Source: a virus. From it: 44,033 nt of DNA. Position numbers and translations under genes: made by a program. The notes beneath the pieces were generated by a model. The model made no database searches. It was not told where the DNA came from and saw nothing but the letters and a program-made list of their open reading frames with translations. Of this stretch, positions 5,413 through 38,724 are shown piece after piece; positions within the stretch are counted from its first letter, which is position 1, and every line of letters starts with the position of its first letter. Location of the stretch: UHGV virus genome UHGV-0039449. One strand, written 5' to 3'.

Positions 5413-5997
5413 TTATTGTTTGTTTTTTTCGTTCTGGTTGATGACAAATTCAATGTAACTTTCGATCTTTGCTTTCTCGGTTTCGGGTAACAATGCGTAG
5501 CGCGAGCGGTCATAGTTGATAGTCGCAGGGTCGTGCGGGTGAATCAGTAATTCATAGCCATGACGCCCGAATGCGGATGCAACATTCTCCAGGGTGGAAA
5601 TGGAAACGCTGACCTCATTGTTTAACAGGCGGCTGATTGTCACCTGGGCGACGCCGGATGCGCGGTGAAGTTTTCCCTGCGTTGAAAGGTCGCGGCTTTC
5701 GCTCATCCAGCGTTCCAGGTTGTGAGCCGCCAGCTGACCAATGTCGCTTGGGCCGACAGGCTGAAAACCTTCCTGAGAAAGCGAGCGATCGATATCAAGC
5801 CAGTTACGGGGTTTATTGGCGGCAGCTTCAATTTTTCGTGCAACCTGGTCGCCGATAACCTTCTTGCCAAGAGCCCAGCGGTTTACCAGATTTGCCTGAG
5901 TTCCAAGTTTTTCTGCCATCCGCGTCTGAACACCATTGAATTCACGGTCGATCAAGTCGTTGAGATTTTGCCTGCGGACGTCCTGGATACTTTTCAT
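5413..5997 (-). CDS. Putative prophage repressor with tandem XRE-type HTH domains
   Basis: 194 aa with two HTH-like segments (MAEKLGTQANLVNRWALGKK... and VAQVTISRLLNNEVSVSISTLENVASAF). Divergent from the Cro-like gene, with three palindromic sites between them. No S24 peptidase motif seen. Confidence 0.6.
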   Translation of the reverse strand: MKSIQDVRRQNLNDLIDREFNGVQTRMAEKLGTQANLVNRWALGKKVIGDQVARKIEAAANKPRNWLDIDRSLSQEGFQPVGPSDIGQLAAHNLERWMSESRDLSTQGKLHRASGVAQVTISRLLNNEVSVSISTLENVASAFGRHGYELLIHPHDPATINYDRSRYALLPETEKAKIESYIEFVINQNEKNKQ

Positions 5998-11958: not shown

Positions 11959-13430
11959 AAGATACAGCGTTATCTCCTGAAGAGCAGTTGATCGAGGATA
12001 TTGCAGGGTTCACTCACGATCCGCTTGGTTATGCCCTCTATGCGTTCCCGTGGGGGGAAGAGGGGACTGAACTGGCACATGCCACCGGTCCACGTCAGTG
12101 GCAGGCCGATGCGTTCCGAGAGATACGTGATCACCTGCAGAATCCAGAGACGCGCTATCAGCCGCTTATGCTGGCACGCGCTTCTGGTCACGGTATTGGT
12201 AAATCCGCATTCATCTCAATGCTGATCAACTGGGGCATGTCCACTTGCGAGGATTGTAAGGTCGTGGTGACCGCCAACACCGACAACCAGCTACGAACGA
12301 AGACCTGGCCGGAAATTATCAAGTGGTCGAACCTTGCTATCACGAAAGACTGGTTTACCTGTACCGCTACCGCGATGTACAGCAATGACCTAGGGCACGA
12401 CAAGCGGTGGCGGGCTGACGCAATACCCTGGTCTGAGCACAACACCGAGGCATTCGCCGGACTACACAACGAGCGCAAACGCATCATCGTGGTGTTTGAT
12501 GAAGCGTCGAACATTGCGGATCTGGTGTGGGAAGTTGCCGAGGGTGCGCTTACGGACGAAGACACTGAGATTATTTGGGTGGCGTTCGGAAACCCTACAC
12601 GTAACACCGGGCGTTTTCGCGAATGTTTCCGCAAATATAAACACCGCTGGAAAACTGCGCAGATTGACAGCCGGACGGTGGAAGGCACTAACAAACAGCA
12701 GTTGCAGAAATGGGTTGATGACTACGGGGAAGACAGCGACTTCGTTAAAATCCGTGTGCGCGGTATATTCCCGGATGCATCTGAATTGCAGTTTATCCCT
12801 ACCGGCCTTACTGACGAGGCAATGAAACGGGTGGTAACCGCTGCGCAGGTTGCACATGCTCCGGTGATAATCGGCGTTGACCCGGCATACTCCGGCGTTG
12901 ATGACGCTGTGATATACCTGCGGCAGGGGCTGCACAGTAAGGTGCTGTGGACCGGCAACAAGACCACTGACGATCTGATTATGGCAAAGCGTATCGCTGA
13001 CTTTGAAGACCAGTATCAGGCTGACGCGGTGTTCATCGACTTCGGTTACGGTACCGGGCTGAAGTCAATCGGTGACGGTTGGGGGCGCACATGGCAACTT
13101 GTTCCGTTCGGTGGCGCGTCTACTGACCCGCAGATGCTCAACAAGCGTGGGGAGATGTTCAACTCATGCAAGACATGGCTGAGGCTGGGCGGCATGCTGG
13201 ATGACCAGGAAACAGCGGACGACCTGTCGGCGGCAGAGTACAAAGTTCGCGTGGACGGTAAAATCGTTATCGAACCGAAGGAAGATATCAAAGAGCGGCT
13301 TGGGCGTTCTCCTGGTAAAGGCGATGCGCTACTGCTGACGTTTGCGTTCCCTGTGTCGAAGCGTCTGCGAATTCCCGGGCAGCAGAACCAGCAAGGCAAG
13401 GCGCTTACCGAGTACGATCCATATGCTTAG
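11955..13430 (+). CDS. terL: Terminase large subunit
   Basis: 491 aa; Walker A-like ARASGHGIGKS; Walker B-like IIVVFDEAS; C-terminal nuclease-like region; GTG start overlapping the terS stop. Confidence 0.85.
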   Translation: MKDTALSPEEQLIEDIAGFTHDPLGYALYAFPWGEEGTELAHATGPRQWQADAFREIRDHLQNPETRYQPLMLARASGHGIGKSAFISMLINWGMSTCEDCKVVVTANTDNQLRTKTWPEIIKWSNLAITKDWFTCTATAMYSNDLGHDKRWRADAIPWSEHNTEAFAGLHNERKRIIVVFDEASNIADLVWEVAEGALTDEDTEIIWVAFGNPTRNTGRFRECFRKYKHRWKTAQIDSRTVEGTNKQQLQKWVDDYGEDSDFVKIRVRGIFPDASELQFIPTGLTDEAMKRVVTAAQVAHAPVIIGVDPAYSGVDDAVIYLRQGLHSKVLWTGNKTTDDLIMAKRIADFEDQYQADAVFIDFGYGTGLKSIGDGWGRTWQLVPFGGASTDPQMLNKRGEMFNSCKTWLRLGGMLDDQETADDLSAAEYKVRVDGKIVIEPKEDIKERLGRSPGKGDALLLTFAFPVSKRLRIPGQQNQQGKALTEYDPYA

Positions 13431-14245
13431 TCTTTATTTTTATCATCGAAACCTGATAATCCAGATAGAACACCAAAGTTATTAAAAACGTTTGGCTTAC
13501 CAGATTTTAATCCGGATAAGTTGTGTTGCTCCAAAAAGTTGCTAATTGTTTGGCCGTTGCCAAGTGCAAGGCTTTTTATTTGAGATTTTTCAGGGTATTT
13601 GAGTTTGTATTCGTCGAAATCATTTTGGAGGGTCTTATATGCCTCATTCATTCTTCCCAGAGTTTCCGATATCTCTTTTAATGAATGATTTAGAGCTGCT
13701 AACTGAGCACTGGCGGATCTCAATTCGTCATCTTTAGCTTTCAACTCGGCAGTCAATTCCCCCATACTATTCTTTGATCGAATAATCTCTTCTTTCATCT
13801 CTTGGATGTCTTTTTCCGCGCCAGTCTTAACTTTGTCGTATGTAACATCTTTTTTAGCCAATAACCTCTGCAGTCTGGTTTCACGCTGGATTTTTCTTGC
13901 CTTCAGGTGATTTTCGATTGAGTCATTATTATCAAGAGGCTTTGCTTGCCATACGTTAATGATATTGTTTACCCATGGTAATAGGCAGCAGATAGCAATT
14001 ACAGATAAGCATGGATAAAACATAACAGTTTTCCATGTGCTGTTATCTGAGATATATGAAATTTTATCTATTATGTTTGATTTGCTAAAAAATAGATAAA
14101 GAATTGATTTCCAGTTGAAGGCGCACCAGGACATAACAAAAGCACCAAGCACAGGGTTTTTGGCTCGATTCACGGCAGTATTGGCAGTAGATAAAAACAG
14201 CTCTTTAAACGATTCAAACATGCTAATTACCTTGAAGTTTTTCAT
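13427..14245 (-). CDS. Membrane-anchored coiled-coil protein of unknown function (moron)
   Basis: 272 aa from ATG 14245; two predicted TM segments followed by a long coiled coil; about 30% GC against the phage background; antisense insertion between terL and the portal gene; TATAAT directly abuts the start codon. Confidence 0.5.
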   Translation of the reverse strand: MKNFKVISMFESFKELFLSTANTAVNRAKNPVLGAFVMSWCAFNWKSILYLFFSKSNIIDKISYISDNSTWKTVMFYPCLSVIAICCLLPWVNNIINVWQAKPLDNNDSIENHLKARKIQRETRLQRLLAKKDVTYDKVKTGAEKDIQEMKEEIIRSKNSMGELTAELKAKDDELRSASAQLAALNHSLKEISETLGRMNEAYKTLQNDFDEYKLKYPEKSQIKSLALGNGQTISNFLEQHNLSGLKSGKPNVFNNFGVLSGLSGFDDKNKD

Positions 14246-14467: not shown

Positions 14468-14544
14468 TGGCGCGGCATGCAGGATTCGAACCTGCGACCA
14501 ACCGCTTAGAAGGCGGTTGCTCTGTCCAACTGAGCTAATGCCAC
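14468..14544 (-). tRNA. tRNA-Arg (anticodon UCU), phage-encoded
   Basis: 77-nt cloverleaf folded by hand from the minus strand: acceptor GTGGCAT/ATGCCGC, D-arm GCTC/GAGC, anticodon stem ACCGC/GCGGT with loop CTTCTAA, T-arm GCAGG-TTCGAAT-CCTGC, encoded CCA. Confidence 0.8.
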
Positions 14545-24164: not shown

Positions 24165-26678
24165 ATGCCAGTTGTACCAACAACATCGGGCCGTCAGGTT
24201 CAGAGCAGAGGGATTTCGACGCAGGGATTCTCATCGTTTCAGACACTAAATGTCGGTGATGTACTTGGCGATGTTGCAGAGCAATATGCAGGTATTATTG
24301 CGCAGGCAAAACAGCGTGCGAATGTTGCTATGGCTCAGGATGCTTCTCTTAGCTTAAGCCAGATAAGCAGCGATCTGCTGAATAATCCTGAAACAGGATT
24401 GCTTAACCTGAAAGGGAAAAATGCTATTGGAAAAGGTCAGGAGTATACGCAGCAGTTTGATGCTCAGGTCGAACAACTGGCTATGTCGCTGCCGGATGAA
24501 CAGGCTCGTAATGCTTTCATGCAGCAGGCGCAGCAGCAGCGCATTCAGTTCACTACGCAGGCAGGGCGGCACGAGATAGGGCAAATAAATGCCTACGAAG
24601 AAGGCCAGTTTCAGGCTGCGCTGCTGAACAATGGTAAAAATGCCGCAGCATTGTATGGCGACAACGCCGCATACGTATTGGCTAATAAGCAAACTTTCCA
24701 GCAAATTGAGGATTACGGCATTGCACATGGCTGGAGTGACGAGCAAATCCAGGCCAAGAAAATCGAGTTTAAAGAGAAGGTTGCTGATGCTGCATTGTCC
24801 CAGTGGTCGGCAAACAATGCGACCGCATTCATCCAAAGTAATGGCGAGTTAAGTGATACTGCTGCTGGAGCTCGCCGTGCTGTAGCAGATAGTGACTCTT
24901 CCGAGCGTGCCCGTGGCATACGCAACAATAACCCAGGAAATCTCGAATACAGCAAAACTAATCCGTGGGTAGGCCAGACCGGTGATGATGGTCGATTTGC
25001 TAAATTCGAAACACCTGAACACGGGATTCGTGCATTAGGGCGGAACCTGATGTCGTATCAGCGGCAGGGTATTGATACAGTCAGCGAGATAATTAATCGC
25101 TGGGCACCGCCTACTGATAAAAATGACACTATGTCGTATATCAAAGCAGTGTGCGAACAACTTGGCGTTTCTGCTGATGAGCCTCTCGATGCATCAAATC
25201 CTGATACCCTGAAGGCGCTTTGTGCAGCCATTATCCATCATGAGAACGGTAGCCAGCCATACAGTGATCAGCAGTTAACTGCTGGTGTCAGTGCAGCACT
25301 TGGTTTATCAACAATTCCAACCAACACCAAACGCTATACCGGTAATGCAGCATTCGATGCGGCATCTCCTGAGGCGCAGGCAAGTTATATGCGACAGGCG
25401 GATCAACTGCGTCGGCAGCAGCAGGCTGAATATAAAACGATGATTGACAGCCAGGTTCGCGATGCGACGGCTGCGTATATGCGTGGCGTTGAATTTCCTA
25501 ATCCACCTGGTGAGGCTGATTTTATTGCAGCTTATGGCGTCAGAGAAGGAAACCTGCGATATACCGAGTTCAGAAATACGCAGATCGCCGGACAGTATAT
25601 AGGCTCTTTCCGCAACATGCCGACAAGCAGCATTACAGCATATGTTGAGCAATTACGCCCGGATACTGGTGAGACAGGGGAGGGGTATGCGGCACGCGCA
25701 GCTCTTTATGACAACGTTGTTTCGGCTGCAAATCAGGTGATAAAGCAGCGGCAGTCGGATCCTGTGCAGTTCTCTCTTGCCGCCGGACAGGCAAAGCCTA
25801 TCGACATGAGCAATAAGGATAACTTTGGACAGAGCGTTGCCTTGCGTGCCGCTCAGGTCAGTGACCTTGCCAAGTCATATGGCACTCCACTGACGTTCTT
25901 TTCCAAAGACGAGGCCAATCAGATCGGTGTTTTCTTTCGTGATGCGCCCGTTTCCCAACAGGCAGCATATCTCGATACCATCAGGCAAAGCACTGGTGGT
26001 GGGCAGGTGTATATGTCAGCACTACAGCAGATCAGTGCCAACGCTCCATCTGCTGCCGTTGCCGGGATACTGATGGATAAACCTGGTGGTATTTTGGCAG
26101 AAAAAAACTGGTTTAATCCGGATGTTTCCGTGTCACCTGAAACCGCTGCGCAGACAATTCTTGCTGGCGCGGCGGCTCGTAAAGGTACTGATGATGCGAA
26201 AGGTATTCCGATGCCTAAAGATGCTGATCTTCGCCTTGAGTTTTCTGACATGGTGAAGGATGCATTTGCTGGTGATGCTCAGGGGGCATCAATGGCATAC
26301 GAGATCGCAAAGGACTATTACGCTGGTGTGATGGCGAAAAAAGGCGTGGTATCAGGCGAAATTGACAATGATATCTGGAAACAGGCTGTTAACGTAGCTA
26401 CAGGTGGCGTGCATGACTATAACGGAATGGGGAATGTCCTTTTGCCGTGGGGAATGTCTGCAGAGCAATTCGATAAGCAGGTTAATCAGGCTTGGAATGA
26501 ACAAGTTGTCGGCACAGGGATAAAAACACCGCCTGGTCAGTATGGTTTGCAAAGTTACGGCGATAGTCAGTACCTGGTAAAACTTGGGACTGGATATCTG
26601 CTGAAGGATGATGGTTCTCCTGTTGTTCTTGATCTGACACAGAAGCGTCAGAGATTCTCCGGAGATATTCCGCAATGA
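24165..26678 (+). CDS. Internal virion / ejection protein
   Basis: 837 aa; conserved-looking central block ERARGIRNNNPGNLEYSKTNPWVGQTGDDGRFAKFETPEHGIRALG..., possibly a cell-wall-directed domain. Confidence 0.55.
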   Translation: MPVVPTTSGRQVQSRGISTQGFSSFQTLNVGDVLGDVAEQYAGIIAQAKQRANVAMAQDASLSLSQISSDLLNNPETGLLNLKGKNAIGKGQEYTQQFDAQVEQLAMSLPDEQARNAFMQQAQQQRIQFTTQAGRHEIGQINAYEEGQFQAALLNNGKNAAALYGDNAAYVLANKQTFQQIEDYGIAHGWSDEQIQAKKIEFKEKVADAALSQWSANNATAFIQSNGELSDTAAGARRAVADSDSSERARGIRNNNPGNLEYSKTNPWVGQTGDDGRFAKFETPEHGIRALGRNLMSYQRQGIDTVSEIINRWAPPTDKNDTMSYIKAVCEQLGVSADEPLDASNPDTLKALCAAIIHHENGSQPYSDQQLTAGVSAALGLSTIPTNTKRYTGNAAFDAASPEAQASYMRQADQLRRQQQAEYKTMIDSQVRDATAAYMRGVEFPNPPGEADFIAAYGVREGNLRYTEFRNTQIAGQYIGSFRNMPTSSITAYVEQLRPDTGETGEGYAARAALYDNVVSAANQVIKQRQSDPVQFSLAAGQAKPIDMSNKDNFGQSVALRAAQVSDLAKSYGTPLTFFSKDEANQIGVFFRDAPVSQQAAYLDTIRQSTGGGQVYMSALQQISANAPSAAVAGILMDKPGGILAEKNWFNPDVSVSPETAAQTILAGAAARKGTDDAKGIPMPKDADLRLEFSDMVKDAFAGDAQGASMAYEIAKDYYAGVMAKKGVVSGEIDNDIWKQAVNVATGGVHDYNGMGNVLLPWGMSAEQFDKQVNQAWNEQVVGTGIKTPPGQYGLQSYGDSQYLVKLGTGYLLKDDGSPVVLDLTQKRQRFSGDIPQ

Positions 26679-28477
26679 GTTACTTTGGCCTTAATCCAGT
26701 AAACCAGAATCAGCAGCTTGACGAAGCAGTATCAAATCCAGCTGGCTTTAACAGCGATGTTGGTTTTTTCGACAATGCTGTAGGAGCGGCATTGTCTGGT
26801 TTGTACTCCGGGCTGGTGGCAAAGCCAGATCAGTTGCTATGGGCAGGGATGGATAAAATCGTATCCCCGATTGCTCAGTTTGTTAACGAAAACACCTCGC
26901 TCAATGACACTTCAGTTTCATACATTGCCGAGCAGAGAAAACTAGCAGAGCAGCAGGTTAAGCGGCTGACGCCTGATGCCGCGACAACCGGAACCGCCGG
27001 GCAGGTTCTTTATGGGTTGTTCGATATGGGCGGGCAGGCTGTTGTCGGTACAACGCTCGGTGGTCCTGTCGGAGGTGCAGCGGCGGTAACTTCGCTACAG
27101 GGTTTTTCTGAGTTTGAACGGCTGACAGCACAGGGTGTTGATTTCAGGACAGCGCAGGAAGCGGGATTAGTGCAGGGCATTACTGCTGGGGCCGGGACAT
27201 TGATCCCTATGAGCCTCGGGTTACGTGCTGGTGGTGCGCTGGCGGAAGGTGTGGCGGCTCAGCTCGCGCGGACGGGTGAAAGTTCAGTACGACGCGCCGC
27301 AGCAACAGCAGTACGTGCAACGCCAGATATTGCCTATGCCGCAGGTACAAATATTGCGTTCGGTATGGCACAGCGTGGGCTTACTGCAAAAACGCTTCGT
27401 GATGGTGGCTATAGCGAAATGGCTAACCAGTATGATGTGTTGGATCGACAGGCAATTGCTATTGATGCTGTTCTTGGGGTGGCGTTTGGTGGTGTCGGCA
27501 GATTTATTAACTCTCGCGGCGAGTCTACAAACGCACCAAATTTTTCACCAGTTGATATCGATGCTGCACTGGCGGCGAATGCCGCTCATCATGCTGAAAT
27601 TGATATTGCGCCCGGCGTGCCGATCAACGTGCTTTCGCGCAATTCTCACATTCAGGCTCTGCGAAAAGCTATGTCTGATGTTAGCCAGGGGAGACCTGTA
27701 GACGTTGCCAGCATTGTTGAGTCTGCATCTTTCAGTGAAATTCCTGGGCGCAAGAGTCTGCTGTCTCAGGCAGTTAATGAGGCTCTGTCATCTGTAGATG
27801 ATGGAGTAACGGCGCGCGCTATAGAAAATCGGTTGCTTGAAGAACAGGCCGCGCAGCTTTTGCCGCGTGGAGATAGACAGGTTTACCAGTCTGAAATCGC
27901 TAATAGCCAACGAATTATTGAAAATCTCACTGAACAGCGTGCACAAATTCTTGCAGAAGAGCCAACCGGTAGCGGTAAAGCTTTGTCTCGTGCTCGATCA
28001 GATAAACAGGCCAGACTTCGCGATATTGATCAACGAATCCGGCAGGCACAAGAACGCCTGGAATTTTCCCGTAACGCGTTGGCACCGCACGAGCCTGGCG
28101 GTCAGCTTTTTGAAGCTCGAGCAGAACTGGCTCGGAGACAGCAGGCAGAAAGTGAACTTAATGCTCAGGCTGTTTCATTCTATAAAACAGCAGAGGTCAG
28201 GACGCCAGACGAAGTAGCTCCTTTTGAGCCTGATAAAATATTGCAACAGGCAGAACAAAAAATGATGTCAGATAAGGCAGGAGATATTGATCTGCGCATA
28301 GCTGAAGACTCGCTGCTTGAATCACCTGACATGATAATCACCGTGCTGGATGATGATGGTAATCCACAATCGCGCAGCGCGCGTGAAGTACTGGATGAAG
28401 CGAACAGGGAAAGTGAGCAGGCAATACAGGATTCCAGCCTGTTTGATGTCGCTGTGGCGTGTTTCTTGAGAGGTTAA
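26675..28477 (+). CDS. Internal virion / ejection protein
   Basis: 600 aa, Ala/Gly-rich N-terminal half and coiled-coil C-terminus; overlap-coupled. Confidence 0.55.
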   Translation: MSYFGLNPVNQNQQLDEAVSNPAGFNSDVGFFDNAVGAALSGLYSGLVAKPDQLLWAGMDKIVSPIAQFVNENTSLNDTSVSYIAEQRKLAEQQVKRLTPDAATTGTAGQVLYGLFDMGGQAVVGTTLGGPVGGAAAVTSLQGFSEFERLTAQGVDFRTAQEAGLVQGITAGAGTLIPMSLGLRAGGALAEGVAAQLARTGESSVRRAAATAVRATPDIAYAAGTNIAFGMAQRGLTAKTLRDGGYSEMANQYDVLDRQAIAIDAVLGVAFGGVGRFINSRGESTNAPNFSPVDIDAALAANAAHHAEIDIAPGVPINVLSRNSHIQALRKAMSDVSQGRPVDVASIVESASFSEIPGRKSLLSQAVNEALSSVDDGVTARAIENRLLEEQAAQLLPRGDRQVYQSEIANSQRIIENLTEQRAQILAEEPTGSGKALSRARSDKQARLRDIDQRIRQAQERLEFSRNALAPHEPGGQLFEARAELARRQQAESELNAQAVSFYKTAEVRTPDEVAPFEPDKILQQAEQKMMSDKAGDIDLRIAEDSLLESPDMIITVLDDDGNPQSRSAREVLDEANRESEQAIQDSSLFDVAVACFLRG

Positions 28478-28482
28478 ATTAA

Positions 28483-30957
28483 ATGAGACAGGAATGTATA
28501 CAAGCGGTCCAGCAGGCGGCGCAGCGCACGTTAACGGCGCGAGAAATACAGAACATTGAAGACCGCATTTATCGAAATATGCGCTCTATTGCTCGTGATG
28601 ACCCGATGTCGTGGAGACAACTTTCCGAATCAGAGCGGCTATATCGTGCAGCACAATTGGCATCTGAAGAATTACAGCGAGAAGCGGCATTAAAGAAACG
28701 TCGTGTGGCCCTCACTATAGCCGCACGTCAGAGATTGGATAAATTTATCAATAGCTATCAAGGGGCTGATGGGAAACTTGGCGCTCTTAACCGTACTATT
28801 GCTTTTAATGCAGACGGTAAATCGAATTTCCTCTCTGTTGAATCCAGAACAAAAGCCACCCGTGATTATGCATTGAGTCAATTGCAGGAGGCATTCGAAG
28901 CAGTTGATCCTCGCTTTTTTGGTCTGTTTGAAGATGAAGCTGGCGTACGTGACCTGGTATATGAAATGCGGGGGCAAAATACTGGCAATGCTAAAGCAAG
29001 AAAAGGTGCTAAGGCGTGGAGAGAAGTTACAGAGCTGCTGCGCCGCCGGTTTAATGATGCTGGTGGGGACATTGGCTATCTCGAAAACTGGGGGATCCCT
29101 CAACATCATTCTATGGAAAAGGTTGGGGCGGTATCAAAAGATAAATGGGTTAGCGATGTTATAGGTAAGCTGGATCGCAAATATTATACCCGAGCCGATG
29201 GACAACTGATGAACGATGCCGAGTTGTCTGCATTTCTTGGAGAGGCTTATAACACGATCGCTACTGGTGGGTTGAATAAGCTTACTGATACCGGAATGCG
29301 AATTTCCGGCGCACGTGCTAACCGTGGTAATGCATCACGACAGATACATTTCAAAGATGCAGATTCCTATCTTCAATATCAGCAACTTTATGGCGATCGC
29401 TCTCTATGGGAAATCATGGTCGGTCACCTGGAAGGTATCAGTAAAGATATTGCACTGGTGGAAACATATGGCCCAAACCCCGATCATGTTTTCCGCTCTC
29501 TTCTTGATCAGGTGAAGGCAGAAACGGCAACAGCTAACCCGAGTAAAACCGGTAAAGTCGAGCGGCTGGCGAACAACACAGAGAATCTGTACAACTTTAT
29601 TTCCGGAAAGACACAGCCTGTAGCGAATCCGCACATCGCGCGATGGTCTGACAATATCCGCAACTGGCTGGTTGCCAGCAGACTCGGATCCGCGTTGCTG
29701 TCATCGTTCTCTGATCTTGGAACCATGTATCTGTCTGCGAAGGTTACCAACCTTCCAATGAACCAGTTATTCCGCAACCAGCTTGAAGCTATGGACCCAA
29801 CGAACCGTACAGAACTTGCGCGGGCGCGCCGCGCTGGTCTGGCGATGGAATCTCTACTTGGCAGCGTTAACCGCTGGGCGATGGATAATATGGGGCCGTC
29901 TGTGTCTCGTTGGGCTGCAACGGCGGTAATGCGTGCCAGTGGGCTTACAGCATGGTCAGATGCGCACAAGCGCGCCTATGGCGTAACCATGATGGGAAGC
30001 TTGGGAGAAGTAGTGTCACGGACACCAGACCTTCGTAGCCTCGATGATTCTGATTTTCGTATCCTGAAAAGCAAAGGGATTACTGACACAGACTGGAGCG
30101 TATGGAAGCTGGCGCAACAGGAGGACTGGGGGAACGGCAATAATACGATGCTGACACCGGAAAGCATTATGCGTATCCCTGATTCAGCAGTTAAACATCT
30201 TGGTGAGCCTGAACGCGTGAAATTTGAGGCAATGCGTAAACTGCTCGGTGCCGTAACTGAAGAAGTTGATATGGCTGTTATTACACCGGGAGCACGTGAG
30301 CAACTGATAACCGGTTCTGGTATTCAGCGTGGAACATGGAAAGGTGAATTAACGAGAAGTGTTTTCCTGTTTAAATCGTTCCCTATCTCGGTGGTTATGC
30401 GTCACTGGTCACGCGCTATGGGTATGCCGTCTGCTGGTGGGCGTGCGGCATATATTGCGACGTTTATTGCCAGTACGACCATTCTTGGCGCTTTGTCGCA
30501 GCAACTTAACGACCTTGCGTCTGGTCGTAATCCTCGCGAGATGACAGGAGAAGATGCTGCTAAATTTTGGCTTGGTGCTCTACTGAAAGGTGGTGGTCTT
30601 GGCCTTTACGGTGACTTTTTATTGTCAGATCACACTAGGTACGGAAGCGGCGCGCTGGCGTCGATGCTTGGCCCGGTAGCTGGTCTGGTTGATGACGTAG
30701 TGAAGATTGCTCAGGGCATACCGTTAAATGCTGTGGAAGGGAAGAGTGAGCAGACTGGTGGTGATCTGGTGAAGCTGGGGAAAGGTTTGATGCCTGGTGC
30801 GAATCTCTGGTACTTGAAGGCGGCTCTCGATCACATGATCTTTAACCAGATGCAGGAGTATTTTTCACCAGGCTATTTGCGTAAAATGGAGCAACGTTCG
30901 AAGAAAGAGTTTAACCAGACATACTGGTGGCGACCACAGGATGTCACTCCGCAATAA
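28483..30957 (+). CDS. Internal virion / ejection protein (large)
   Basis: 824 aa; last gene of the late operon before an AT-rich moron segment. Confidence 0.55.
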   Translation: MRQECIQAVQQAAQRTLTAREIQNIEDRIYRNMRSIARDDPMSWRQLSESERLYRAAQLASEELQREAALKKRRVALTIAARQRLDKFINSYQGADGKLGALNRTIAFNADGKSNFLSVESRTKATRDYALSQLQEAFEAVDPRFFGLFEDEAGVRDLVYEMRGQNTGNAKARKGAKAWREVTELLRRRFNDAGGDIGYLENWGIPQHHSMEKVGAVSKDKWVSDVIGKLDRKYYTRADGQLMNDAELSAFLGEAYNTIATGGLNKLTDTGMRISGARANRGNASRQIHFKDADSYLQYQQLYGDRSLWEIMVGHLEGISKDIALVETYGPNPDHVFRSLLDQVKAETATANPSKTGKVERLANNTENLYNFISGKTQPVANPHIARWSDNIRNWLVASRLGSALLSSFSDLGTMYLSAKVTNLPMNQLFRNQLEAMDPTNRTELARARRAGLAMESLLGSVNRWAMDNMGPSVSRWAATAVMRASGLTAWSDAHKRAYGVTMMGSLGEVVSRTPDLRSLDDSDFRILKSKGITDTDWSVWKLAQQEDWGNGNNTMLTPESIMRIPDSAVKHLGEPERVKFEAMRKLLGAVTEEVDMAVITPGAREQLITGSGIQRGTWKGELTRSVFLFKSFPISVVMRHWSRAMGMPSAGGRAAYIATFIASTTILGALSQQLNDLASGRNPREMTGEDAAKFWLGALLKGGGLGLYGDFLLSDHTRYGSGALASMLGPVAGLVDDVVKIAQGIPLNAVEGKSEQTGGDLVKLGKGLMPGANLWYLKAALDHMIFNQMQEYFSPGYLRKMEQRSKKEFNQTYWWRPQDVTPQ

Positions 30958-30968
30958 AAGGAGATATG

Positions 30969-31091
30969 ATGGTTCAAATAACTTTTATTGTACTAATATG
31001 TGCAGCGTTTTTATGCTATTCATACATTTTGATAAAAATGGGTTTCAATTGGAATCTCTGTTGCGTGCAGCGGCATGGTTCGGCTTTGTAG
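30969..31091 (+). CDS. Small hydrophobic peptide (about 40 aa), tentative
   Basis: Hand-translated MVQITFIVLICAAFLCYSYILIKMGFNWNLCCVQRHGSAL; strong AAGGAG RBS 5 nt upstream; AT-rich. Confidence 0.3.
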   Translation: MVQITFIVLICAAFLCYSYILIKMGFNWNLCCVQRHGSAL

Positions 31092-31176
31092 TATTCGGAA
31101 TTGTATTGTTCGGAAGAATAATAAAATAACTAGTTAATTTGTGGATTGGTGCTGTTTTTCCATGATAGGGGTAATT

Positions 31177-31557
31177 ATGAGAAAAGTATTTTTGATTTTT
31201 GGATTTATGCTTCTCGTTGGATGCCAGTCAGCTGCACAGTTTGAAAGAAATATGCTTACGTGGCGCGGGCAGAGTATAGACGCAATGGTTCAGCAGTGGG
31301 GGTATCCTCAGGGAGAGCTTACATCTCCAGATGGAAACAGAGTGTATGTTTACTCAAGCTCTGGTAGTTATAACGTACCACAAACCACAACGTATAATAC
31401 TACGTCTAATCTAATTGGTAATACTATATATTCAAACACATACGCAACAACTGATGGCGGTTATACACTCCATTTCAGTTGCTCTGTTTACGTTGAGTTT
31501 GGTGCTGATAAGATTATTAAAAATGTTACATGGCGCGGTAATAATTGCGTTGCGTGA
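31177..31557 (+). CDS. Lipoprotein of unknown function (moron)
   Basis: 126 aa; signal peptide plus lipobox MRKVFLIFGFMLLVGC; S/T/N/Y-rich mature part; AT-rich; followed by a terminator. Confidence 0.55.
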   Translation: MRKVFLIFGFMLLVGCQSAAQFERNMLTWRGQSIDAMVQQWGYPQGELTSPDGNRVYVYSSSGSYNVPQTTTYNTTSNLIGNTIYSNTYATTDGGYTLHFSCSVYVEFGADKIIKNVTWRGNNCVA

Positions 31558-31566
31558 CATGTCACA
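31552..31566. promoter_or_regulatory. Palindromic element GCGTGACATGTCACA (copy 2, inverted)
   Basis: Same palindrome overlapping the TGA stop of the lipoprotein gene, directly followed by a terminator; reverse complement matches copy 1 at 14 of 15 positions. Confidence 0.4.
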
Positions 31567-31590
31567 GGCCGCTTTCGCGGCCTTGTTTTT
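31566..31590 (+). terminator. Rho-independent terminator after the lipoprotein gene
   Basis: AGGCCGC-TTTC-GCGGCCT followed by TGTTTTT. Confidence 0.65.
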
Positions 31591-31750
31591 AACGAATGCC
31601 ACCGCCACCCGGGCGGGAATCCGCAGAACGCCCACCGCAGCGGGAGCCGTCAGCAGCAGTGTCGCTGTCGTGCTGACAACGACCGGCAAAGGCCTGAGTT
31701 GAAGCTACCAGAGACAACAAAACGAACAGTGCAGCAAATGCTTTTTTCAT
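31589..31750 (-). CDS. Small secreted peptide, tentative
   Basis: MKKAFAALFVLLSLVASTQAFA signal-like N-terminus then a Gly/Arg-rich tail with two Cys; weak RBS. Confidence 0.25.
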   Translation of the reverse strand: MKKAFAALFVLLSLVASTQAFAGRCQHDSDTAADGSRCGGRSADSRPGGGGIR

Positions 31751-31822
31751 TGTGAAATTTCCATCTATAAGCCACCTCAATGTGGCGTCAATGAGTGTAG
31801 CACTGACTTTTGTTTCGTCCAC

Positions 31823-31843
31823 AAAAAAGCCCGCGCTGCGGGC
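31823..31843 (-). terminator. Rho-independent terminator after the 210-aa gene
   Basis: Minus strand GCCCGC-AGC-GCGGGC followed by TTTTTT. Confidence 0.65.
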
Positions 31844-31848
31844 TTCTA

Positions 31849-32481
31849 TTAATGCAGTTTATCTTTGCTTATAACCAGTAGTCTGTGGGTATGCACATCT
31901 TTATCACTGCCCCAACAGAAATCAGCCCACTGGCTATAGAAATCATCCCATGATGTCATGAAGCTAAGAGGTCTATCTTCTTCAGAGCCATCTGAAACGT
32001 ATACATTATATCCTGGGGTGTTTATAGCCCAAGAAATCATTCTTTCCCAGAATCTTCTCCCATCGATTGTTTGTTGCTCATCAGATACAACGATCGCATA
32101 TTGCTCTAGGAAGAACTGAAAAAAAATCTGAGGCAAACCATGAACAGCACGGTCATGAATAACATTAGGCGTACGCCATACCATGATCTGCGTACATGTT
32201 CTTTTGGCTTCGACGATATCTTCCCGAAAGATTAACTTAACCGCATACACCGTTTCTGGAGTATCGCTGGTAGTAATCATTCTGTAATGATCGCCATTAC
32301 AAGATTTTACAAGGCGATAACCATAAGGTGTTGTGAATCCCGGAAGAACGAAATCAACCACACCTTTCGCTAAGTAGCTTTCGGTGTGACTAGTGTTCTT
32401 CTCAGACATGTTCAGTTTTCTATCGAAATCTGCTTCTGGGATAATGTATGGCATCGCTTTTCTTGTTGTATTTGTTCTCAT
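31849..32481 (-). CDS. Hypothetical protein (210 aa) of unknown function
   Basis: GGGAGG RBS 5 nt upstream; perfect TTACC-N5-GGTAA site about 60 nt upstream; own terminator; no recognisable domain. Confidence 0.5.
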   Translation of the reverse strand: MRTNTTRKAMPYIIPEADFDRKLNMSEKNTSHTESYLAKGVVDFVLPGFTTPYGYRLVKSCNGDHYRMITTSDTPETVYAVKLIFREDIVEAKRTCTQIMVWRTPNVIHDRAVHGLPQIFFQFFLEQYAIVVSDEQQTIDGRRFWERMISWAINTPGYNVYVSDGSEEDRPLSFMTSWDDFYSQWADFCWGSDKDVHTHRLLVISKDKLH

Positions 32482-32627: not shown

Positions 32628-33284
32628 TCAGAAGAACCCTGCCTTGTCGTTGATGTACTCCGCGTGCGTCTGGATATCACGCAGGCATTTGCTCACACCA
32701 ACGATGTAGCAGAACATGGTGGTCAGCTCCGCCGCCGCGCCCGATACGTCGTGCCCGTCGTCCTGTAACTGGTTCAGCAGATTCATCAGCAGTGAGTTCT
32801 CCGTCAGGCCGAGAACACCAGACGGCGAGTGAATCAGGCTGCGGTAGCCGGGCTTCAGTGGGGCACTGTATTCTTTTTTGTCTTCCAGCTTGATCGCCTC
32901 CATAATGGCGGGCATGAAGCCTGACAAGACCTTCTCCACTTTTGTTTCTTGTTGTCTTAAACGTTTCTCGCATTCAATGAAGTAGCGTCGCACCTGGCGA
33001 CCTTTTTCGTTACGCTCGACCATCGCCAGCTCTTTGGCTGTATCAAGGGTGAGGTGGTACTCTTTGCGGTTGTGGCCGCCTCTACCAGATGTTTGCTTTC
33101 CCAAATTGGAAAGCAAAATATAGTCTTGATTTTCAATGAATTCGTATTCTGATATGCGATTTGTAATCCATGCTGCAAACACCTTTTTAACACCTAAAAA
33201 AGCGTGCAGATCGCGGGCATTACAAAGTAGGGCTGTTTCGTTAGATATAGTGCCGTTGAATACGGGGATGAGTTGAGCGTTCAT
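32628..33284 (-). CDS. Phage antirepressor (AntA-type N-terminal domain)
   Basis: 218 aa; [32 protein letters not shown]...[33 protein letters not shown] matches the AntA/AntB N-domain; GGAG RBS. Confidence 0.7.
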
Positions 33285-33442
33285 GATGGCGTCTCCACTT
33301 AGCGAATTACATCACCACCGCTGAGACCAATCAGATGGTGGTGAACTGAACGGAGTTGGTCTTACCGGCCTAAGTGGTACCGGCGTCCTTTCGGACCCCC
33401 ATTCAGCCCACCATAATTCTGGCATGACTGTGCTATACGCAT

Positions 33443-33465
33443 AAAAAAACCACGTCTGGCGTGGT
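33443..33465 (-). terminator. Terminator-like hairpin upstream of ant
   Basis: Minus strand ACCACGCC-AGA-CGTGGT region followed by TTTTTTTAT. Confidence 0.45.
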
Positions 33466-33555
33466 ATGCGCCACTTAGTAATCCGGGAGACCAATCCCGG
33501 CACTGGATTTTGCCAGTGCCCGATTACTATGGCACAAGAGGAGTGCGATGTAAAT

Positions 33556-34055: not shown

Positions 34056-36425
34056 ATGACGGTCTCAACCGAAGTTGACCACAACGAATACACAGGTAAC
34101 GGCGTTACGACATCATTTCCGTATACCTTCCGTATTTTCAAAAAATCCGACCTGGTTGTTCAGGTGGTTGACCTTGATGAAAATATTGCTGTGCTGGCTC
34201 TTGATACTGATTACACAGTAACTGGTGCGGGAGGGTACAACGGCGGTAATGTAATTCTGTCGAAGGCGTTGGCTAACGGTTATCAGATTTCTATATCACG
34301 AGACCTCCCGGTTACGCAGGAAACTGATTTGCGTAATCAGGGTAAGTTCTTTGCAGAAGTGCATGAGGATGCTTTTGATAAGCTAACGATGCTGATTCAG
34401 CAGGTTCGAAGCTGGTTCCGGCTGGCGTTGTGTAAGCCATCCAGTATAGCGAATTGGTATGACGCACTTAATAACTATATTCGTAATCTGAAAGACCCAC
34501 GCGACCCTCAGGATGCAGCTACAAAAAACTATGTAGATACCATTGTATTCTCTAACCTTAGCCGAACTCTCCGAGTTCCTGAGCCAATAAATCAGTTACC
34601 TCCAGCAGCAGTTCGGCGGAATATGATGCCAGCATTTGATAATGATGGTAATGCGATTGTTGTTATTCCTCCATCTGGTTCAGCATCTGATGTGCTTATT
34701 CAGTTAGCAAGTTCTTCCGATGGAAAGGGGGATGCTTTAGTTGCAGTTAAACAACCTTATGCTAATTCTGTAACTATTACTCAACATCAGCACAACACCT
34801 ATCTTCTTACCCCTTACCACTTCGGAGCAAAGGGAGATGGTATTGCAGATGACACTCTTGCCCTAAACCGCTGGTCCAATTGCGGAGCTAAGGTACTCTA
34901 TTGGCCAGCAGGAAAATATCTGGTGAGCCCTACAAATGGTGTTTCTCTGGATATGGATAACTACCATACAGGGGATTCCGCACTGACGGCGTGCGTAACC
35001 GTTCCCTATGGCGTGAAAATTTATACGGCTGGGACAGAAACCCAGTTATGCGTGAAGGATGCTGACTCAGCATCGACCGTAGGTCTGGCCGTTAGCTACC
35101 CGGAGTCAAGTTATTCCCAGGGAGAAACCGACATCGGAAAATTCATGATTCGCCTGGAAAACGGAAATGGTCGGTACGGTATTCTTACTCCACTCAGGGA
35201 GGAAATGTTCACTGCGCACCGGGCGAAGTTCAAATTAGGAGCGCATTTCGGTCCTCAACAGGGGCGTGATGAACTGACGGTGCTACAGTATTCGTGGGTA
35301 AATGGCATGCTGATTGGCGACGCTTTTAGCGGCTCAGTGCATGTCACTGGATACGGCAGCTATAACGTGCAGCAGGTTGAAGGTACGCAATTCCAGTGCG
35401 TGGCCGTTAAGATGAAGTCCGTTCGAGGTAACGTAGGTGTAGACATCAGATTCAACACAAACAACTGGTGGAAGTTTGTCGAACTGAGTGACGGCGTTGA
35501 AGGGTTTGTTGTCAAGGACAGCGAAGGGCTTGGGGCATTTGTTGGAATCGACCTAACCAACCCAGCCAGCGAGCCAGGTGGATTTATCGATAACGTACAC
35601 GTCAACGTTAAGCAAAACGGAGTACGAGCCAGAAACAGGCCATCCCTGCAAATCGGAAACATTGAAGTCTATAAAAGTGATGGATTTGCCACTGACCTTG
35701 TTTACGATGCGGTGCTTCTGGTTGACTGCCAGGAAGTGACTATCAACTCTATTCACGCAATCGTCGGCAACTCAATCACAAATGCTCAGTCAGTAGTTAA
35801 CTCGACAAACAGCACATTCCGCCTGAACTCATACTTTGCGCAAAACATCAGGTTCGTCGATTTTGTGGTTAATAGCCCTGACTGCTATGTCGGAGAGGGG
35901 ACAATTAACCAGGTCGAGGCAGTTCACTCACTTTCTGGATCACAAAGCAACGACTTCCACGGTAGTGATGTTCTGGTTAGATCCTACAGAAACAACGTTC
36001 GCCCACTTTACGCAGTGATGGATTCCGCTTTCAACAGGGCAAGGGCGAGGTTTCCACAAAATACAAGCCTCCAGGTGAGAACCTTTCTCGACTACACTGT
36101 GGCAGCAGCTGGGACTTTAACAATAGAACCAAGGCTTGACCCCTCCAGGTACTACATCATCATGAGTGCTGGTACAAGTGCCTTCACCTATTCAATTGAG
36201 CTGGATAAAGTGTCTGCCGTAGTTGGTGATATTGTTTACATAAAGATAGCCGGGTCATCATCTGCTAACCCAACAGTTTTGGTTAAAAATGGTATTGGTG
36301 GGACAACGCTCAGCACATTCAATAATATCGGTCCGATTCGTTTGAATTGTGCTTACAGATTTAATGAGTCAGGTAACTGGGGGGCCTACTACATTACCCA
36401 AAGCGTTGAAACCTCTTATGGCTAA
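34056..36425 (+). CDS. Tailspike / tail fibre with beta-helix (pectate-lyase-like) domain
   Basis: 789 aa; N-terminus YTGNGVTTSFPYTFRIFKKSDLVV...DYTV typical of phage fibre anchor domains; HFGAKGDGIADDTLALNRW is a pectate-lyase-fold signature. Confidence 0.8.
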   Translation: MTVSTEVDHNEYTGNGVTTSFPYTFRIFKKSDLVVQVVDLDENIAVLALDTDYTVTGAGGYNGGNVILSKALANGYQISISRDLPVTQETDLRNQGKFFAEVHEDAFDKLTMLIQQVRSWFRLALCKPSSIANWYDALNNYIRNLKDPRDPQDAATKNYVDTIVFSNLSRTLRVPEPINQLPPAAVRRNMMPAFDNDGNAIVVIPPSGSASDVLIQLASSSDGKGDALVAVKQPYANSVTITQHQHNTYLLTPYHFGAKGDGIADDTLALNRWSNCGAKVLYWPAGKYLVSPTNGVSLDMDNYHTGDSALTACVTVPYGVKIYTAGTETQLCVKDADSASTVGLAVSYPESSYSQGETDIGKFMIRLENGNGRYGILTPLREEMFTAHRAKFKLGAHFGPQQGRDELTVLQYSWVNGMLIGDAFSGSVHVTGYGSYNVQQVEGTQFQCVAVKMKSVRGNVGVDIRFNTNNWWKFVELSDGVEGFVVKDSEGLGAFVGIDLTNPASEPGGFIDNVHVNVKQNGVRARNRPSLQIGNIEVYKSDGFATDLVYDAVLLVDCQEVTINSIHAIVGNSITNAQSVVNSTNSTFRLNSYFAQNIRFVDFVVNSPDCYVGEGTINQVEAVHSLSGSQSNDFHGSDVLVRSYRNNVRPLYAVMDSAFNRARARFPQNTSLQVRTFLDYTVAAAGTLTIEPRLDPSRYYIIMSAGTSAFTYSIELDKVSAVVGDIVYIKIAGSSSANPTVLVKNGIGGTTLSTFNNIGPIRLNCAYRFNESGNWGAYYITQSVETSYG

Positions 36426-37611: not shown

Positions 37612-38230
37612 ACAATTCCAGCGAGCTGCTGGTATTAGCGAGGCGCTGGCCGCACGCTGGTTCTCGCATATAACTTCTGCTATGAAAGAGTTTGGTATCA
37701 GCAAACCAGAAGATCAGGCAATGTTTATTGCTCAGGTCGGGCATGAGTCTGGGGGCTTCACCAGATTGGAGGAGAATTTCAACTACAGTGTCAGCGGACT
37801 GGCTAACTTCGTTCGGGCTGGGCGTCTCACTCAGGGGCAGGCTAATGCACTGGGGCGCCGTGCTGGTGAACCACCATTGCCACTTGAGCGCCAGCGCGCG
37901 ATCGCAAATCTGGTATACAGCAAACGCATGGGGAACAATGCCCCTGGTGATGGCTGGAATTACCGAGGGCGCGGACTTATCCAGATTACCGGTTTGAATA
38001 ACTATCGTGATTGCGGAAACGGTCTGAAGGTTGACCTGCTGGAGAGCCCTGAACTGCTGGCGCAGGACGAATATGCGGCTCGTAGCGCGGCGTGGTTCTT
38101 CGCCAGCAAAGGATGCATGAAGTATACCGGCGATATTGCACGTGTAACTCTGATTATCAATGGTGGCAGAAACGGTATCGACGACCGGCGTGCGCGGTAC
38201 ATCACAGCAAGTAAGGTACTGGCGGTATGA
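37601..38230 (+). CDS. Endolysin, glycoside hydrolase family 19-like
   Basis: 209 aa; motifs [12 protein letters not shown] and [16 protein letters not shown] typical of GH19 phage endolysins. Confidence 0.8.
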
Positions 38231-38724
38231 TCTGGGCATTTGTAAAAGCATACCGTAAACAGTTACTTATCGTGGCGATGCTTGCTGTTCTGGTCATATC
38301 AGGAGTTGTTGCCTGGAATGTGCACGGCATCCGTCAGTACGATGCCGGGTATGCGCAGGCGAAGGAAGATCAGAAACAGGCTGATGATAAGTTAAGGTCA
38401 CAGCGTGAGCAGGAGAAAACACAAATTGAACGTGAAGCACAATCCCGTATCGATGCGGCGCGTGCTGATGCTGAGTATGCTAATTCCGCTGCTGACAGCA
38501 TGCGCGCCGAGCTTGACAAAACCAGGCGGCTCGCCGAACACTATACCGGATCTTTCCCACCTGGCACGCCAGCCAGCAAGGTCATCGGTGTGCTCGCCGA
38601 CATGCTTGAAGAAAGCAACCGAGTTTACAACGCAACAGCAGCTGAGGCTGAAAAGTATCGTATCGCAGGGGAATTCTGCGAGCAGCAATACGATTCACTG
38701 AAGAAGCAAAAATCGTGGCACTGA
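38227..38724 (+). CDS. i-spanin (Rz-like)
   Basis: 165 aa; N-terminal TM helix then charged coiled coil; overlaps the endolysin stop. Confidence 0.7.
38453..38701 (+). CDS. o-spanin (Rz1-like lipoprotein) nested in the +1 frame of the i-spanin gene
   Basis: [17 protein letters not shown] signal plus lipobox, Pro-rich mature part, fully inside the i-spanin ORF. Confidence 0.55.
   Translation: MRRVLMLSMLIPLLTACAPSLTKPGGSPNTIPDLSHLARQPARSSVCSPTCLKKATEFTTQQQLRLKSIVSQGNSASSNTIH

Follow-up and report, generated by a model that had tools for sequence, protein, structure and literature searches.

An accessory slot behind the ejection-protein genes of an epsilon15-like Escherichia coli prophage carries three independent modules

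RESULTS AND DISCUSSION

Genes between the late operon and the antirepressor region

The window, that is, the whole 44,033-nucleotide stretch analyzed here (UHGV virus genome UHGV-0039449), is an epsilon15/phiV10-like (Uetakevirus) prophage of Escherichia coli. The 1-kb stretch around the genes described here is 100% identical to prophages of CE10, avian pathogenic E. coli (APEC) O1 and other extraintestinal pathogenic E. coli (ExPEC), and the same stretch is 99.7% identical in the temperate podovirus vB_EcoP_ZX5 (genus Uetakevirus; ZX5 below). Its gene order is that of phiV10. The plus-strand late operon ends in three large virion/ejection-type genes, and the phiV10 homologue of the last of these, an 824-aa gene, is annotated as a virion structural protein. 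Beyond the operon lies a minus-strand block that ends in an AntA/Bro-N antirepressor gene, with isrK and C4 antisense RNAs before it, followed by the tailspike gene and the lysis cassette. This gene order places positions 30958-31850 after the ejection-protein genes and before the antirepressor/tailspike region, and we are confident that they form an accessory slot with three unrelated modules inside: a short open reading frame (ORF A), a lipoprotein gene (B) and, on the opposite strand, a gene for a secreted peptide (C) (Table 1).

A first-pass annotation made from the sequence had described three ORFs here, and both the sequence and the ORF listing bear out their coordinates. Its reading of B as a 126-aa lipoprotein with a classical lipobox is likewise confirmed from the translation, as is that of C as a Gly/Arg-rich peptide with a signal peptide. 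The position that it gave, after the late operon, also stands: the 3' end of the ejection-protein operon carries these genes as accessory cargo. Comparison of close relatives supports a region without fixed content, in which cargo varies from phage to phage. The segment is bounded by terminators, and each of the eight other occupants examined is a transmembrane (TM) or signal-peptide protein; they include two-TM peptides of 46 to 66 aa, a 98-aa protein with three TM segments, a Rap1a-family protein and a 134-aa exported protein. In phiV10 and Salmonella, alternative occupants also start from a Shine-Dalgarno (SD) sequence and an ATG at the same place. In an epsilon15-like Klebsiella prophage (L014, 5238-6094), the slot holds a Rap1a-family protein, of the type that gives immunity to type VI secretion system (T6SS) effectors, together with a 134-aa signal-peptide protein. 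Between 30800 and 32000 no Rfam family reached its gathering score (best E-value, 0.48).

Table 1. Features of the accessory slot and of its surroundings in the window
Feature	Position	Strand	Details
First large virion/ejection-type gene	24165-26678	+	
Second large virion/ejection-type gene	26675-28477	+	
Last large virion/ejection-type gene	28483-30957	+	824 aa; epsilon15 gp17-like, phiV10 p20; phrog_684 virion structural protein, E = 0
SD sequence AAGGAG	30958-30963	+	5 nt before the ATG at 30969; serves ORF A; read from sequence
ORF A	30966/30969-31091	+	41 aa (40 aa from 30969); first TM helix, then aberrant tail
Frameshift site	31026-31030	+	one base lost at or next to a T4 run (tac a tttt gat)
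-1 frame remainder FDKNGFQLESLLRAAAWFGFVVFGIVLFGRIIK	31028-31129	+	second TM helix; own start context gone
Lipoprotein B	31177-31557	+	126 aa; signal peptide and lipobox Cys16 at 31177-31224; same ORF annotated by PGAP (Prokaryotic Genome Annotation Pipeline)
Perfect palindrome GTGACATGTCAC	31554-31565		overlaps B stop codon; conserved module junction
Late-operon intrinsic terminator	31566-31590	+	stem AGGCCGC-TTTC-GCGGCCT, then TGTTTTT (terminator scan)
Peptide C precursor	31589-31750	-	53 aa; phrog_14503, E = 2e-40
C mature peptide GRCQHDSDTAADGSRCGGRSADSRPGGGGIR	31684-31592	-	31 aa; Cys-X12-Cys
C signal peptide	31750-31685	-	Sec-type; predicted cleavage after AFA
C promoter/leader region	31751-31822	-	72 nt, near-identical in the commonest upstream variants
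C candidate -10 TACACT	31799-31794	-	then 7 nt and hairpin GCCAC-ATTGAG-GTGGC (31786-31771); promoter inferred from sequence
C alternative candidate promoter	31791-31764	-	TTGACG (31791-31786), 16 nt, TATAGA (31769-31764)
Terminator of upstream minus-strand gene	31823-31844	-	AGCCCGC-AGC-GCGGGCT, then T6; left border of C cassette
210-aa gene	31849-32481	-	phrog_1349, function unassigned
AntA/Bro-N antirepressor gene	32628-33284		
isrK Hfq-binding RNA and C4 antisense RNA	33334-33519	-	67.7 and 61.2 bits
Tailspike gene	34056-36425		789 aa; weak pectate-lyase-like match
Rz gene	38227-38724		embedded ORF with LLTAC lipobox
tRNA gene	14471-14544	-	69.4 bits

Independent recombination of the three modules

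ORF A, B and C are three independent modules and not one moron. Related phages recombine them independently, which argues that the three ORFs are not one unit. Of 80 viral contigs in which C is identical, just 5 also carry A and B; in the rest, C is paired with at least five other neighbors. Neither A nor C accompanies B in prophages of Salmonella (L007) and Klebsiella (L009), an intact A-type peptide stands without B in another relative (L049), and A and B are both absent from phiV10 and phiv142-3. The first-pass annotation had instead taken the segment to be a single AT-rich moron, a reading contradicted by this separate recombination, by the decay of ORF A and by the lack of a convincing promoter for B. 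That the three ORFs lie side by side and that each has export or membrane signals speaks for one moron whose products act together, but the distribution above, the frameshift in A and the GC-rich composition of C leave this very improbable.

Base composition sets A and B apart from C. The guanine-plus-cytosine (GC) content of A and B together (30958-31557) is 0.378, against 0.483 for the whole window; a value this low occurs in just 0.8% of 600-bp windows. The low GC content that had been noted for the segment therefore applies to A and B; it fails for C, at 0.57 for the gene and 0.69 for the mature part. Terminators are found for both B and C, and C also has candidate -10 and -35 elements in a conserved block upstream. 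Only C has the layout of a classic moron, with a putative promoter. Like the lambda bor and HK97 gp15 morons, C is an added gene that is flanked by terminators, has an upstream region of its own, is present or absent among relatives and is atypical in composition; it differs from the classical lambdoid morons in that its promoter is only inferred and its product belongs to an uncharacterized family. A promoter scan of the region returned 7 candidates against 5.7 expected from shuffled sequences, which is not above expectation.

The palindrome GTGACATGTCAC at the junction between B and C is retained in phiV10, in the Salmonella and Klebsiella prophages L007 and L009 and in most of the 80 viral contigs, regardless of the gene upstream, and may serve in recombination or be bound by a protein. 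The late-operon terminator next to C is conserved in all 80 contigs; on the minus strand it follows the C stop codon, without a good U-tract.

ORF A is the front half of a two-helix membrane peptide gene

The 40-aa hydrophobic peptide with a strong ribosome-binding site, as ORF A had first been described, has the ORF and the SD sequence but is not an intact gene: it is the front half of a frameshifted one. When both window frames were joined and used as the query, intact single-frame homologues of 54 aa (P0252) and 52 aa (P0253) were retrieved at 65-67% identity over 96% of the query, along with a 44-aa variant. In the DNA alignment (A5), the intact gene reads TAT GCC TTC GAT where the window reads TAC A-T TTT GAT, a gap of a single base. 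In a related phage contig, 8 nt separate the 54-aa gene from the 824-aa gene that precedes it, and phiV10 and phiv142-3 have two-TM peptides of 46 and 57 aa, respectively, at the same position. The second of these (L005, 2568-2741), which has a GTG start directly after the 824-aa gene, is not annotated in GenBank; by BLASTP it matches P0252 (E = 2e-10) and the -1 frame remainder of the window (E = 2e-5). We conclude from these comparisons that the 40-aa ORF is the 5' stub of a decayed gene for an inner-membrane hairpin peptide of 52-57 aa with two TM helices.

The split is widely shared. The segment is present in 34 complete E. coli genomes, each of which matches it over its full length at 99.5-100% identity, and ZX5 has the same ORF A split; in a metagenome allele (L050), the frame is restored through a 26-nt deletion. 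Since the SD sequence is good, the stub without its second helix may still be translated. Programmed -1 frameshifting was considered and rejected: there is no in-frame X XXY YYZ heptamer at 31020-31040, and the relatives use a single frame. ORF A had no significant match in Pfam, NCBIfam or PADLOC.

Lipoprotein B belongs to a large family with a predicted BamE-like fold

The precursor of B begins with the signal peptide MRKVFLIFGFMLLVG followed by C, with an LVGC lipobox and Gln at the +2 residue, as read from the translation. This reading (MRKVFLIFGFMLLVGC) fits both the lipobox pattern [LVI][ASTVI][GAS]C and the n-h layout of a signal peptide. Cys16 does not vary among 21 relatives, and at least 90% of 73 distant ones also have it. 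Throughout the family, the +2 residue is Gln or Ala and never Asp; B is therefore predicted by the Lol sorting rule to be an outer-membrane lipoprotein. The other invariant elements of the family are Cys102, Cys124, WGYP, P-x-GN-x-VYVY and GNNC.

B matches phrog_3716 (function unassigned) at E = 5e-64, and its 37 close relatives are all enterobacterial. In Salmonella, for which the index gives 930 blocks of the collection, B starts 10 nt after the 824-aa gene; in Klebsiella and Enterobacter prophages it occupies the same slot beside different tailspikes. The Klebsiella prophage L009 has a 143-nt gap before B that holds a strongly hydrophobic 39-aa ORF on the opposite strand (5855-5974, minus strand), which may have arisen by chance or may encode a small toxin-like peptide. 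B has a GC content of about 0.40 in Salmonella, Klebsiella and Enterobacter too, between flanks of 0.49-0.56, whereas in distant taxa its GC content is that of the locality; this indicates that B was captured horizontally from a low-GC donor. Its ratio of nonsynonymous to synonymous substitution rates (dN/dS) is 0.05-0.14. Conservation across genera, with saturated synonymous sites and few nonsynonymous changes, sets both B and C far apart from chance ORFs.

The mature domain of B is predicted to have a fold like that of BamE, OsmE, BLIP and CAP_assoc_N (PF14504), with a predicted disulfide formed by the conserved C102-C124 pair. The AlphaFold2 model has a mean predicted local distance difference test (pLDDT) score of 83.7, and a profile of B relatives hits Protein Data Bank (PDB) chain 4h0a at E = 5.6e-5. 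Compared with these proteins of the SmpA_OmlA-like alpha-beta fold, B has longer hairpins, the C102-C124 pair and the WGYP and GNNC motifs. It matched no Pfam model, including the BamE/SmpA_OmlA hidden Markov model (PF04355), and there is no evidence that B, like BamE, is a component of the β-barrel assembly machinery (BAM) complex. Searches of NCBIfam and PADLOC with the B protein were also without a match. A profile search extended the family to 3,733 clusters at 50% identity, none with a Pfam assignment, and no conserved gene neighborhood was found around the distant relatives of B.

B looks like a passenger of the late operon, given that it has no convincing promoter of its own and follows the preceding gene so closely in Salmonella. 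It is followed by a strong terminator, and a scan of the plus strand found no terminator between 30957 and 31566, so that the stretch from the 824-aa gene to B is free of them. A role for B as an Rz1-type o-spanin was rejected. The Rz gene, with its embedded lipobox ORF, stands beside the holins and endolysin, and B is 7 kb away from this Rz/Rz1 cassette.

Peptide C is a mobile cassette with a nearly invariant secreted product

The precursor of C begins with MKKAFAALFVLLSLVASTQAFA followed by G, and the mature 31 residues include 9 Gly and 5 Arg. Its signal region is laid out as MKK / AFAALFVLLSLVAS / TQAFA|G, with a basic n-region, an h-region and an AXA motif, as signal peptidase I (SPase I) requires. 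Relatives fall into 57 clusters from Escherichia, Shigella, Citrobacter, Klebsiella, Cronobacter, Franconibacter, Salmonella, Pectobacterium and Dickeya. The core C-Q-H-D-S-D-T-A-A-D-G-S-R-C-G-G-R-S-A-D-S-R-P-G-G is almost invariant, whereas the signal peptide is variable. Across genera, synonymous differences (pS) amount to 0.5-0.8 per site against 0.04-0.09 for nonsynonymous ones (pN); this near-saturated synonymous change beside rare nonsynonymous change indicates a real gene under strong constraint. C looks like a secreted peptide rather than the "transmembrane anchored protein" that databases name it, since a variable signal part joined to an invariant mature part argues against that name. 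Between the cysteines lies a D-x-D-x-x-x-D-G loop, for which cation binding is conceivable but offered only as a lead. A longer, 77-aa form of C from a GTG start, the length of phrog_3117, was rejected: homologues start at MKK, and in Klebsiella an in-frame TAA lies three codons upstream.

The gene forms a convergent cassette of about 300 bp made up of a terminator, a promoter/leader, the ORF and a second terminator. The outer terminator at 31823-31844 was read from the sequence and was not reported by the terminator scan. In the 80 viral contigs, the cassette is constant from this terminator (AGCCCGC…GCGGGCTTTTTT) to GTGACATGTCAC, with 43 variants of the upstream flank and 28 of the downstream flank; in the commonest upstream variants, the 72-nt leader differs by single bases only. 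In several genera the leader has a hairpin about 25 nt upstream of the ATG with a -10-like hexamer before it, and in Klebsiella, Cronobacter and Pectobacterium the hairpin stands at the same position with a different sequence. Stems in the window and in L014, L015, L135 and L013 read GCCAC/GTGGC, ACCACC/GGTGGT, GGCCAT/ATGGCC and CCGC/GCGG. Alleles of C with strong SD sequences have no leader hairpin. The hairpin may be a 5' stabilizer or a regulatory element.

At least six kinds of convergent neighbor were found next to C: A and B, the phiv142-type hairpin and three-TM pair, phiV10 p21, Ant, a 283-aa exported protein and the 824-aa gene. Upstream of it stand YafO, the 210-aa gene or Ant. C also occurs on small and large plasmids, and it is found beside RelB/YafQ or MuF_C toxin genes. 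A 1-kb query spanning C has a match in 555 of 5,426 complete E. coli genomes (about 10%). In phiV10 (L002, 4247-4270), the last six codons of C (GGGGIR and the stop) remain beside the shared terminator; this leftover of a deletion is missing from the phiV10 annotation. A literature search found no paper on the peptide sequence, its accessions, the PHROG identifiers or the name "transmembrane anchored protein". The papers on phiv142-3 and ZX5 do not treat the slot genes, and the C gene (orf11) is absent from the supplement of PMC7724020, which lists up-regulated genes only.

Possible roles in the envelope

The best explanation of the whole, which we consider as likely to prove right as wrong, is that the three modules encode accessory proteins that act in the cell envelope, of the kind that occupies the sieA position in P22. 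On the P22 map, sieA follows ejection gene 16 and precedes ant and the tailspike gene, which we take to be equivalent to the slot in the window. The likeness goes further: P22 is also a temperate podovirus, and sieA, presumably at the same map position, is a dispensable accessory gene for an envelope protein. P22 SieA differs from both B, a lipoprotein, and C, a secreted peptide, in being a polytopic inner-membrane protein. It has no sequence similarity to them, and exclusion is here only an analogy. SieA excludes related phages by blocking DNA delivery via the ejection proteins (PMC10883804). That B hinders the DNA entry of related phages is a tentative proposal, made plausible by the match between the slot and the sieA position; the general statement with which it began, that prophage lipoproteins at this position often block DNA entry, had no tested example behind it.

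In such a mechanism, B would sit in the inner leaflet of the outer membrane and bind a periplasmic or outer-membrane protein. BamE/OsmE/BLIP-like folds are typical of protein-binding modules. The partner might belong to the ejection conduit of a related phage as it enters, or it might be an envelope protein of the host that the phage needs, and binding would hinder envelope penetration or DNA entry. B would be made within the late transcription unit, just upstream of its terminator. C would be exported to the periplasm and act separately, on a periplasmic target conserved across Enterobacterales. Lipoproteins that exclude phages are also known from T5 (Llp) and from phi80 and N15 (Cor), where they are encoded beside receptor-binding genes and block the receptor FhuA. 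Like B, these are small phage-encoded outer-membrane lipoproteins that face the periplasm, and Llp, the FhuA-blocking lipoprotein of T5 (bioRxiv 10.64898/2026.03.26.714494), is disulfide-stabilized too. They are of another fold class than B, without a sequence match to it, and the phage that carries B uses a surface polysaccharide as its primary receptor.

Several observations weigh against this envelope-acting, entry-blocking account. Neither sequence nor fold links B to Llp, Cor, SieA or the PADLOC models. In many phyla, the wider B family occurs singly on the chromosome, among unrelated neighbors, and its ancestral role is therefore not phage-specific. The promoter scan gave B only a 9/12 match that overlaps the start of ORF A. 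ZX5 is a viable temperate phage with the frameshifted A, so that ORF A is dispensable. For C, only the signal helix is confident in the AlphaFold2 model, with low confidence for the mature part, and searches of Pfam, NCBIfam, PADLOC and PDB sequences gave no relative of assigned function.

Two other roles for B have to be set beside entry blocking. Just as tentatively as an entry block, B, and possibly C, could serve the fitness of the lysogen or its conversion and not act against phages, either as an orphan immunity protein or inhibitor directed against periplasmic toxins (T6SS effectors, lysozymes or colicins) or as a stress or serum-survival factor of the Bor/OsmE kind. A Rap1a-family protein occupies exactly this slot in the Klebsiella relative, B resembles BtiO, BLIP and OsmE, and the wider B family is mostly chromosomal and not linked to phages. 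C fits as well, being found on plasmids and near the toxin modules YafO, RelB/YafQ and MuF_C, and cargo genes that neighbor the slot in phiv142-3 affect serum survival (PMC7724020). Yet B has no sequence match to immunity, inhibitor or Bor families, no cognate toxin is linked to it, and it lies in the late operon without a clear promoter for expression in the lysogen.

The other role is a purely lytic function, in which B would be made only after induction and would protect progeny from cell debris in the manner of T5 Llp or restrain, until release, a virion protein that degrades the wall or takes part in ejection. As the last gene of the late operon, B reads in the same direction and, in Salmonella, stands close behind its neighbor; no internal terminator precedes it, and the late terminator comes immediately after. 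In relatives, the first of the three large ejection-type proteins has an SLT domain; the 837-aa protein of the window, in which these relatives had led us to expect one, has no SLT match. Podoviruses specific for O-antigen or capsule have no known proteinaceous receptor to mask, and phiV10 and phiv142-3 are viable without B. As many close relatives do without it, B is not a core late function, and a strictly late lytic role appears improbable.

For C, we speculate further, and with considerable doubt, that the peptide represents a new class of mobile periplasmic effector of phages and plasmids, with a disulfide-looped mature part of 27-31 residues, and that the slot is a general exclusion locus. 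Binding to a conserved envelope protein would explain why C is almost unchanged across Enterobacterales. As part of the same idea, the motif C-x-H-D-x-D-x-A-A-D-G-S-R-C-G-G-R-S-A-D-S-R-P-G-G would possibly bind a metal or Ca2+. If the slot were such a locus, its interchangeable occupants, namely the inner-membrane hairpin, the three-TM protein, the periplasmic Rap1a-like protein and the outer-membrane lipoprotein, might block the ejection conduit at different layers of the envelope.

The stretch is ordinary prophage cargo of a general kind already known, drawn from uncharacterized families, and without a demonstrated function it holds little surprise for a phage specialist. Cargo genes in prophages nevertheless shape the phage resistance and fitness of pathogenic E. 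coli (K1, APEC and ExPEC). What had been a stretch of hypothetical proteins now consists of three separately testable units, and a large lipoprotein family without a Pfam model, with a predicted BamE/BLIP-like fold, has been flagged. Envelope proteins concentrate in the slot behind the ejection genes of epsilon15-like phages, a hot spot that parallels the sieA position of P22. Its most interesting item is the ultraconserved secreted peptide C.

Neighboring features of the window

The 210-aa gene that separates C from the antirepressor gene had no significant Pfam, NCBIfam or PADLOC match, and in TL-2011b-type contigs its place is taken by a YafO-family toxin and a small partner. The isrK and C4 RNAs lie directly upstream of the antirepressor gene, an arrangement that resembles the immI control region of P1/P7 type, here in a podovirus. 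The otherwise identical CE10 prophage encodes a 1,039-aa protein with an endosialidase domain at the tailspike position, a case of tailspike exchange on an unchanged backbone. Between the early and late regions, the tRNA gene adjoins another stretch of very low GC content (about 0.37, at about 13400-13750).

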